64,000 nt of DNA from an uncultured Bdellovibrionales bacterium. Lineage in GTDB: Bacteria > Bdellovibrionota_C > UBA2361 > SZUA-149 > DAOLCO01. Below, in pieces: positions 27,755 through 27,839 of this stretch. Position numbers and translations under genes: made by a program. Below the pieces are notes generated by a model, which worked only from the letters and a program-made list of their open reading frames with translations, made no database searches and was not told the origin of the DNA. Position 1 is the first letter of the stretch; each line of letters opens with the position of its first letter. The stretch is taken from positions 123,713-187,712 of the forward strand of contig CAZTBW010000004.1 in NCBI GenBank assembly GCA_964612555.1, written 5' to 3'.

Positions 27755-27839
27755 GAGAGGAATGTTTTTGTCTGTTTTGCGAAAACTCAAGCGGACCGAA
27801 GGGAGCCATTTGAGCAAAACAGACAAAAACATTCCTCTC
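27755..27839. promoter_or_regulatory. perfect 28-bp inverted repeat (long hairpin) in flagellin 5' leader
   Basis: GGGAGAGGAATGTTTTTGTCTGTTTTGC (27755..27782) and exact reverse complement (27812..27839), 29-nt loop; 48 nt upstream of flagellin ATG; on minus strand followed by U-rich tract. Confidence 0.65.

Follow-up and report, generated by a model that had tools for sequence, protein, structure and literature searches.

The 64,000-nt window analysed here (positions 123,713 to 187,712 of contig CAZTBW010000004.1, assembly GCA_964612555.1) comes from an uncultured Bdellovibrionales bacterium and carries on its minus strand a wzt gene and, co-directional with it and downstream, a gene for a flagellin (Table 1). 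The region between these two genes contains an 89-nt palindromic element, a perfect inverted repeat that begins 269 nt downstream of the wzt stop codon and ends 45 nt before the flagellin start (counted on the minus strand from 27753, the 3' end of the stem, to 27707, the A of the ATG). The first-pass annotation of this sequence had reported an exact 28-bp inverted repeat upstream of the flagellin ATG and this was confirmed, as all 28 pairs between the two 28-nt arms are of the Watson-Crick type, with no G.U pair and no mismatch. The identities of the flanking genes, flagellin (25671-27707) and wzt (28110-29456), both on the minus strand, were also borne out by Pfam. Some of the measurements needed adjustment: the repeat placed at 27755-27839 exists but its arms reach 2 nt further on each side (27753-27841), the loop given as 29 nt is a spacer of 33 nt, and the distance to the ATG is 45 nt rather than 48 nt. 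The proposed extension of the stem to 31 bp through TCAA/TTGA is feasible as four additional pairs (UCAA/UUGA), but these would have to span an asymmetric bulge of 6 nt (GUUUUC). The U-rich tract said to follow the stem is present (CUUCUGUGUUUUGUUUGG) but begins at +13, the first 12 nt 3' of the stem being CCCCGUUCGUGC.

The arms of the element have a G+C content of 43%, and the 28-bp stem was present in every fold context examined. The predicted free energy of the hairpin is -53.1 kcal/mol as RNA, compared with -19.0 +/- 3.0 kcal/mol for shuffled sequences (z = -11.4), and -33.7 kcal/mol as single-stranded DNA (z = -10.6). The apex of the spacer is predicted to form a small hairpin with a CUUCGG loop. 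The 22-nt core of the arm matches only itself in the window at up to three mismatches (0 expected), and by our estimate only ~1e-10 perfect 28-bp repeats with a spacer of at most 150 nt are expected per 64 kb. These three results, the single match of the arm core, the z-score of -11.4 and the expectation of ~1e-10, exclude a chance origin of the inverted repeat. With about even confidence, we regard the element as a single-copy, lineage-specific palindromic segment within a long flagellin leader, rather than a wzt terminator or a conserved riboregulator.

Table 1. Positions of the palindromic element, its surroundings and other features discussed in the text. Positions refer to the window unless another locus is named.
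Feature	Position	Strand	Description	Basis
Palindromic element	27753-27841	minus	89 nt	Perfect inverted repeat, folds, copy searches
5' arm (RNA)	27841-27814	minus (flagellin sense strand)	GGGAGAGGAAUGUUUUUGUCUGUUUUGC	
Spacer	27813-27781	minus	33 nt, UCAAAUGGCUCCCUUCGGUCCGCUUGAGUUUUC; apical mini-hairpin inside	
3' arm	27780-27753	minus	GCAAAACAGACAAAAACAUUCCUCUCCC	
Flagellin gene	25671-27707	minus	678 aa	Pfam: Flagellin_N, PD40, Flagellin_C
Predicted FliA (sigma-28) promoter	28026-28051	minus	TTAAG-TCTTAAGCTGAAAAGG-TCGATC (N16 spacing)	Consensus match
Leader and promoter block homologous to L002	27856-28089	minus		blastn
Small leader hairpin	27958-27983	minus	ACAAAACCA-CGGAAA-UGGUUUUGU	Fold, dG -9.6
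Predicted helix over ribosome-binding site	27712-27752	minus	CCCCGUUC-G-UGCC / 15-nt U-rich loop / GGUA-G-GAAUGGGG	RNA folds
9-bp direct repeat	27851-27859 (left), 27720-27728 (right)	minus	GTTTGGTAG; brackets a 122-nt segment with the hairpin	
Upstream open reading frame	27704-27832	minus	42 codons, MFLSVLLKWLPSVRLSFRKTDKNIPLPPVRAFCVLFGRNGGL; AUG at 27832 in the 5' arm just after GGGAGAGGA, UGA at 27706-27704	
wzt	28110-29456	minus	ABC_tran and Wzt_C; co-directional, upstream of flagellin	Pfam
tRNA-Glu	29506-29581	minus	Directly upstream of wzt	
Second inverted repeat	7157-7310		32-nt arms, 94% complementarity, 17 perfect, 90-nt spacer	
Third inverted repeat	23903-24073		59-nt arms, 80% complementarity, 25 perfect pairs (TTAACCGCAGATGGACGCAGATAAA)	
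Elements before tandem flagellin genes, locus L017	L017: 2002-2143 and 3516-3649 (also L019: 831-964)		~140 nt, one before each of two flagellin genes	
FlgO	3133-3936	plus		
Flagellar cluster	9019-13549	minus	FlhA (FHIPEP), FliN-like, YscJ/FliF-family, sigma-70-family	
Sigma-70-family gene	12872-13549	minus	Domains of regions 2 and 4; may be fliA	
RNase P RNA	14526-14871			

A predicted sigma-28 promoter upstream of the palindrome

Mapping of transcription start sites in Bdellovibrio bacteriovorus has yielded the FliA consensus TTAAG-N16-CCGATA, which accounts for two thirds of the attack-phase promoters (PMC3627812). A box of this type sits on the flagellin-sense strand between the wzt stop codon (28110) and the hairpin (27841). 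When both strands of the window were scanned, the exact pattern TTAAG-N16-YCGAT occurred once, at 28051-28026, and the looser pattern TAAR-N15-GYCGAT was also unique, with 0.37 occurrences expected by chance. Among the related loci, L009, which encodes a 60%-identical flagellin, carries the box TTAAG-N16-TCGATT 377 nt upstream of the gene, and L016, with another related flagellin, has TTAAG-N16-CCGATC ~176 nt upstream. Since both have the same box at such distances, long sigma-28 leaders appear to be usual in this flagellin family. A candidate gene for FliA itself is present in the window at 12872-13549, where a sigma-70-family gene adjoins FliF-, FliN- and FlhA-family genes of the flagellar cluster. 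In the window, the start site is most likely near 28018, as judged from the position of the box, which would give a leader of ~311 nt with the hairpin at ~+177 to +265. A scan of the 45-nt stretch from the stem to the ATG revealed no promoter-like site, and a sigma-54 or sigma-70 promoter was found there neither by the scan nor by inspection.

The flagellin leader was compared with that of L002, a locus of the Oligoflexia metagenome-assembled genome AMR_MDS_0130, which encodes the closest retrievable relative of the flagellin (73% identity). This is the sole homologous leader compared: exact-protein look-ups with the flagellin of the window and its closest NCBI homologues were negative, the genome scan gave only L002, and the relatives from the metagenome scan share at most 65% identity over the best aligned segment. 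Positions 28089-27856 of the window align with positions 5729-5964 of L002 at 64% identity over 246 columns (blastn, E = 8e-15), so that ~235 nt of homologous leader lie upstream of the hairpin and the homology ends 15 nt before it. No flanking gene is common to L002 and the window. Because the neighbours differ, the homologous block appears to belong to the flagellin transcription unit and to travel with the flagellin gene. With both the FliA-type box and the L002-homologous leader located upstream of the hairpin, the latter would be transcribed as part of the flagellin leader. The suggestion in the first-pass annotation that the hairpin might be a structure of the 5' untranslated region (5'-UTR) is thus upheld by prediction as far as its location is concerned, given the box, the ~235 nt of homology and the lack of a promoter-like site in the final 45 nt. 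That it would be a dedicated device is a separate matter, and this part of the suggestion was not supported (see below).

One feature of the block has a counterpart in the relative, a small hairpin that L002 forms at the equivalent position with its register shifted (dG -8.8, compared with -9.6 in the window). A 100-nt run of N (masked sequence, L002 7002-7101) interrupts the L002 flagellin gene, which therefore seems to be split into two open reading frames (ORFs); the leader comparison is unaffected.

The hairpin as a possible terminator

The same arrangement of genes could mean that the hairpin stops read-through from wzt, or attenuates transcription inside the leader, in which case flagellin would be produced only from its own promoter or upon relief. 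The wzt gene is co-directional with the flagellin gene and no canonical terminator is found from its stop codon to the flagellin gene, while in L002 the upstream gene is divergent and the hairpin is absent. The mini-hairpin in the spacer (CUCAA...UUGAG, -9.7 kcal/mol) is followed by UUUUC and could pause the polymerase. Like known Rho-independent terminators, the element is a stem-loop downstream of a co-directional gene; unlike them, it has a stem of 28 bp rather than 5-15 bp, a loop of 33 nt rather than 3-8 nt and no adjoining U tract, and it lies downstream of the predicted promoter of the next gene. There are not five or more U residues within 0-2 nt of the stem, the terminator scan made no call, and the stem, at 43% G+C, is not of the compact G+C-rich kind.

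Intrinsic terminators stand between an upstream stop codon and the next promoter, and one that protects the flagellin promoter should lie upstream of the FliA-type box, whereas here the box (predicted rather than mapped) is upstream of the hairpin. A terminator at this place would also terminate flagellin's own transcripts, and would do so behind ~235 nt of conserved leader; the folds offered no alternative structure able to relieve it. The lack of a U tract has to be judged with the flagellin gene itself in mind, as its 3' end has no U tract either and hairpin-only terminators may exist in this organism, which makes this evidence weaker than it would be in Escherichia coli. At least one canonical hairpin-plus-U-tract site does occur in the window, at 38315-38342, although such sites are no commoner than in shuffled sequence. 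On balance, we consider termination or attenuation by the hairpin distinctly unlikely, and the proposal of a strong wzt terminator, confronted with the 12 nt that precede any U tract, the long loop, the modest G+C content and the promoter predicted upstream, was not sustained.

A probable lineage-specific segment of the leader

The leader of L002 does not contain the hairpin. From the end of the homology to the ATG there are 36 nt in L002 (...CCTGGGAGGGCACGTACCATG) and 148 nt in the window, which thus has ~112 extra nt between the conserved block and the start codon, 89 of them being the palindrome. Since the homology to L002 stops before the hairpin and L002 lacks it, the hairpin is most likely a lineage-specific extra sequence in the flagellin leader. 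Six related flagellin genes have no inverted repeat of at least 14 nt in the ~1 kb that precedes them, and the leaders of L009 and L011 have no long hairpin either. As L002 is a single leader and probably that of a paralogue, an insertion in the window and a deletion in L002 are indistinguishable.

The element was also found only once in the sequences searched. There was no second copy in the window or, by blastn, in 23 fetched loci; the exact 22-mer of the arm was absent from metagenome contigs and viral contigs, and blastn found no copy of the element in plasmids and phages. A six-frame composite peptide query of the element gave no match among 5.8 billion predicted proteins, and Rfam returned no match at the gathering score. 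Generic microRNA-precursor models of Rfam stayed below threshold, with 19-38 bits where 53-111 are required, and several matched both strands; they were discarded, as any long hairpin gives such matches.

A sequence recorded a single time could have been created by the assembly, as a fold-back or a chimera. The exact flagellin protein is recorded once, on one contig of 246,747 bp at NCBI, its nearest relatives come from metagenome-assembled genomes and there is no independent copy. Assemblers usually work with k-mers larger than 28. The repeat, at 28 bp, is below that size; it is internal to a long contig, lies between intact genes and encloses 33 nt of unique spacer sequence, and the window contains two more long inverted repeats that are unrelated to it. 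We therefore hold an artefact to be extremely unlikely.

If the palindrome is an addition to the leader, it would have arisen either by insertion of a small palindromic element similar to miniature inverted-repeat transposable elements (MITEs) or repetitive extragenic palindromic (REP) sequences, or by de novo inverted duplication through template switching. With no G.U pair and no mismatch among 28 pairs, the stem looks like the product of a recent event or of symmetry at the DNA level, and not like an old RNA structure under selection. As in MITEs and in the Correia elements of Neisseria, a short non-coding sequence is bounded by inverted repeats and shows a presence/absence difference, here with respect to L002; the duplication that should abut the arms was not seen, the immediate flanks being ...CTT and CCC.... 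A 9-bp direct repeat does bracket the hairpin, with copies 9 and 24 nt from the arms. Because of these offsets it is not a classic target-site duplication, and it is marginally unexpected, as repeats of at least 9 bp appear in 142 of 5000 shuffles (p ~0.03). Pfam scans of ~50 ORFs across most of the window detected no transposase, reverse transcriptase or recombinase. A local duplication of the ribosome-binding-site region as the source of the arm (modules AGGAATG and TGTTTTG) was rejected as unsupported, 1157 of 3000 and 768 of 3000 shuffles reaching at least the same score.

The predicted ribosome-binding-site helix and the possible consequences of the palindrome

Downstream of the stem, a 12-bp helix is predicted to bury the flagellin ribosome-binding site AGGAAUGGGG. 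It was recovered in the minimum-energy and centroid folds of 361-, 161- and 69-nt contexts, with -21.9 kcal/mol (z = -2.05) for the last of these. Sequestration of the ribosome-binding site is also predicted for L002, where GGGAGGG pairs with CCUCUCCC in codons 4-6. As no unpaired base is predicted between the two helices of the window, the 28-bp stem and the ribosome-binding-site helix could stack coaxially.

These features suggest the following course of events. Transcription would start at the FliA (sigma-28) promoter at 28051-28026 and the palindrome would be co-transcribed, its RNA folding into a very stable helix of about two and a half turns (-53 kcal/mol). The base of the stem would join the two flanks, so that the hairpin would act as a compact insertion and, by abutting the 12-bp helix, would reinforce the occlusion of the ribosome-binding site. 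The long duplex would also be a canonical substrate of RNase III, which needs at least ~20-22 bp of uninterrupted double-stranded RNA and would find 28 consecutive, confidently predicted Watson-Crick pairs here; processing of the leader may then alter the half-life of the mRNA. Correia elements that separate a promoter from its gene enter the transcript, where RNase III binds or cuts them, and they affect expression (PMC2649163). By analogy with these, and from the predicted folds, RNase III processing of the leader and reinforced occlusion are the probable effects of the palindrome. Both Correia and ERIC elements inserted in a 5'-UTR work in this way. A role as a neutral passenger is equally compatible with what was found.

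Several points weigh against a lineage-specific palindrome in a sigma-28 leader, or against parts of that reading. The promoter is a consensus match, and its -10 element agrees with the consensus at four of six positions (TCGATC versus CCGATA). Conservation does not fix the start site, as a well-spaced -35/-10 pair is missing from L002 where the two sequences align. L002 itself is probably a paralogue (73% amino acid identity, no synteny) and provides one leader only. The single-copy status holds for the 64 kb and for public collections that possibly lack this organism. There is no transposase nearby and no target-site duplication abutting the arms, the flagellin 3' end has no canonical hairpin-plus-U terminator, and both cleavage by RNase III and an influence on expression are purely putative.

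The hairpin could alternatively be a dedicated element of translational control, a switch on flagellin translation that operates through CsrA and FliW at GGA motifs or through the 42-codon upstream ORF. The first nucleotides of the 5' arm, GGGAGAGGAAUG, imitate the ribosome-binding site, and their complement, CAUUCCUCUCCC, closes the 3' arm. The motif GGGAGAGG lies 15 nt past the end of the leader homology, and the real ribosome-binding site of L002, GGGAGGG, is found at a similar offset of 19 nt. GGA motifs occur in a hairpin loop (27972), within ACAAGGAUGA at 27941-27932 (GGA at 27937) and in AGGAAUG at the ribosome-binding site; the leader of L009 also has GGA motifs in hairpin loops. The CsrA consensus derived by systematic evolution of ligands by exponential enrichment (SELEX) is RUACARGGAUGU, and ACAAGGAUGA is close to it. 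Like the CsrA/FliW-controlled leaders of Bacillus subtilis hag and Campylobacter jejuni flaA, this leader is structured and has GGA both upstream and at a sequestered ribosome-binding site. At a predicted ~311 nt it would, however, be several times longer than the hag leader. Members of Bdellovibrionota generally have CsrA, which has been predicted or shown to repress the hag leader, and B. bacteriovorus CsrA represses the hag leader of B. subtilis (PMC13443453). The upstream ORF is uninterrupted, and its stop codon overlaps the flagellin start codon (AUGA).

Against such a switch, none of the retrievable relatives has conserved the hairpin. CsrA binds short hairpins that expose GGA in their loops, whereas the perfect stem fully pairs its own two GGA motifs and also buries the start of the upstream ORF, with no competing fold. 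The similarity of the arm to the real ribosome-binding-site region is not significant. ACARGGATG, also found at an ordinary ribosome-binding site (13556-13564), is non-specific (3 found versus 1.07 expected), and the 64-kb window contains no csrA or fliW gene. The upstream ORF is probably a chance occurrence, as its start is buried in the stem and the peptide has no homologue among the 5.8 billion proteins. A dedicated translational switch thus seems unlikely and a purpose-built regulator is not supported, the element being unique and not conserved. The same applies to an attenuator or thermosensor, both raised in the first-pass annotation, as the hairpin is absent from L002 and from more distant relatives and a structure of -53 kcal/mol cannot melt at physiological temperature. 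RNA thermometers of the ROSE or fourU type pair the ribosome-binding site weakly and imperfectly and melt at 30-42 C; such a thermometer was rejected in particular because the functional ribosome-binding site lies outside the 28-bp stem, the pairing of which is anything but weak.

Other inverted repeats and possible action at the DNA level

Two further long inverted repeats are present in the window (Table 1). The one at 7157-7310 lies between genes for a 6-phosphogluconolactonase-like protein and a periplasmic-binding protein, both on the minus strand, and has a perfect 14-bp hairpin (7194-7242) nested inside. Its two mismatches would be G.U in the plus-strand RNA and C.A in the minus-strand RNA, and its sequence is unrelated to that of the flagellin hairpin. 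The repeat at 23903-24073, which looks like a REP-type repeat, has a spacer of 53 nt between its extended arms and 89 nt between the perfect cores, and is accompanied by a 15-bp repeat at 24164-24227. Both are located upstream of a Schlafen/AlbA_2 plus HATPase_c_4 gene (24225-25580), which is oriented towards the flagellin gene in a convergent manner.

Comparable objects were seen in related genomes. In L017, from a metagenomic relative, an element of ~140 nt precedes each of two tandem flagellin genes, its arms (GTTTAACCACAAAGACAC) pairing perfectly over 18 bp in the first copy and 14 bp in the second, with a 106-nt spacer; the elements end 2-3 nt before the sigma-28-like boxes CTAAA-N16-ACGATC and CTAAT-N16-CCGATC. 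Long inverted repeats beside flagellin promoters therefore recur in the phylum, those of L017 being upstream of the promoter. A Bdellovibrionales metagenome-assembled genome carries a perfect 26-bp palindrome with a 28-nt loop, CCGTCATCCTCGCGAACGCGGGGATC (L001 4033-4112, L015 287-366), ~1.9 kb upstream of its flagellin gene, which presumably resembles a REP-type repeat of other bacterial genomes. Given the two other repeats of the window and these objects in related genomes, palindromic intergenic elements are a feature of these genomes.

Such neighbours of flagellin promoters bear on the possibility that the palindrome acts as DNA, as the site of a dimeric regulator or as a cruciform affecting flagellin transcription. 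The 28 Watson-Crick pairs would fit a constraint on duplex DNA, symmetry of the two strands would account for the lack of G.U pairs, the fold as single-stranded DNA is very stable (-33.7 kcal/mol), and both flagellin genes of L017 have a long inverted repeat directly upstream of a sigma-28-like promoter. However, half-sites of 28 bp separated by 33 bp far exceed known operators, the site would lie ~180 bp downstream of the predicted start site, and L002 has not conserved it; the repeats of L017 show no sequence relationship to the palindrome and are found on the opposite side of the promoter, and no recombinase or regulator gene is adjacent to the hairpin. A function at the DNA level is, in our view, very unlikely. 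An invertible promoter switch of the hin/fim type was rejected, as the spacer has 33 bp instead of at least ~100 bp and no recombinase domain was found in the scanned ORFs around the hairpin; a retron and a site for the integration host factor (IHF) were rejected on geometry and the absence of partner genes.

A more far-reaching proposal would make the hairpin the first known member of an undescribed family of small palindromic mobile elements in Oligoflexia/Bdellovibrionota that targets sigma-28 leaders and rewires flagellin expression through RNase III in the manner of the Neisseria Correia elements, with the repeats of L017 and L011 and the other repeats of the window as its kin. When the flagellin palindrome was compared with the repeats at 7157-7310 and 23903-24073, only a T/G-rich 12-mer was common to them and a family relationship was rejected. 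We consider it distinctly improbable that the hairpin founds such a family.

Comparison with known palindromic elements

The closest parallel to a palindromic segment in a flagellin leader is provided by the Correia elements (CREE/NEMIS) of Neisseria, small non-coding sequences of ~70-157 bp with ~26-bp inverted repeats, which often lie between a promoter and a gene, are co-transcribed with it and form a long hairpin on which RNase III acts to change the mRNA level, and which differ in presence or absence between related loci (PMC2649163). In the window, co-transcription, folding and processing are predicted. Correia elements occur in ~100-250 copies per genome, duplicate a TA target and often include an IHF site, whereas the element described here is known from one copy, has no abutting duplication, bears no sequence similarity to them and shows no IHF-like site on inspection of the spacer. 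ERIC/IRU and REP/BIME sequences, too, are palindromes of intergenic regions that are transcribed, fold into stable stem-loops and influence how fast the adjoining mRNA decays, as predicted here. REP sequences are imperfect palindromes of 20-40 nt whose copies number in the hundreds and which are linked to a RAYT transposase; the flagellin element has 89 nt, is perfect and is unique in the data searched, and no Y1 transposase was detected in the scanned ORFs. We would therefore class the hairpin as a new instance, known so far from a single copy, of a familiar phenomenon, the occurrence of palindromic elements in bacterial 5'-UTRs.

If the element is transcribed and processed as predicted, it would illustrate how a single palindromic insertion can remodel the post-transcriptional control of flagellin in a poorly studied and largely uncultured phylum. 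In B. bacteriovorus, the cultured model of this phylum, most of the attack-phase programme depends on FliA. The comparison also provides a leader map for this flagellin family, with the FliA box, ~235 nt of conserved sequence and a ribosome-binding site that is sequestered. An element that is neither conserved nor found elsewhere has limited general significance; it is useful chiefly as a test case and as a caution against reading long perfect stems as terminators or riboswitches.

The flagellin and its genomic neighbourhood

The start of the flagellin gene is fixed by 11 homologues, all of which begin with MSRLSL.... Between Flagellin_N and Flagellin_C, the protein has six or seven PD40/TolB-like repeats of 56 aa. 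The AlphaFold2 model shows regular four-stranded blades from residue ~180 to ~520, with a predicted local distance difference test (pLDDT) score above 90, and Foldseek matched it to TolB, S9-peptidase propellers, WDR5 and flagellar filaments. About a hundred full-length homologues of this flagellin were found in Bdellovibrionota/Oligoflexia metagenomes, often two per contig. A beta-propeller class is not mentioned in a 2024 survey of flagellin outer domains (PMC11532411). The flagellin, whose outer domain is confidently predicted to be a PD40 beta-propeller, is in our view more unusual than the hairpin and may exceed it in novelty. The wzt gene appears to be an orphan, with no adjoining wzm permease gene. 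The tRNA, wzt, flagellin and Schlafen-like genes may form an island, and homologues of the flagellin are found in unrelated neighbourhoods elsewhere.

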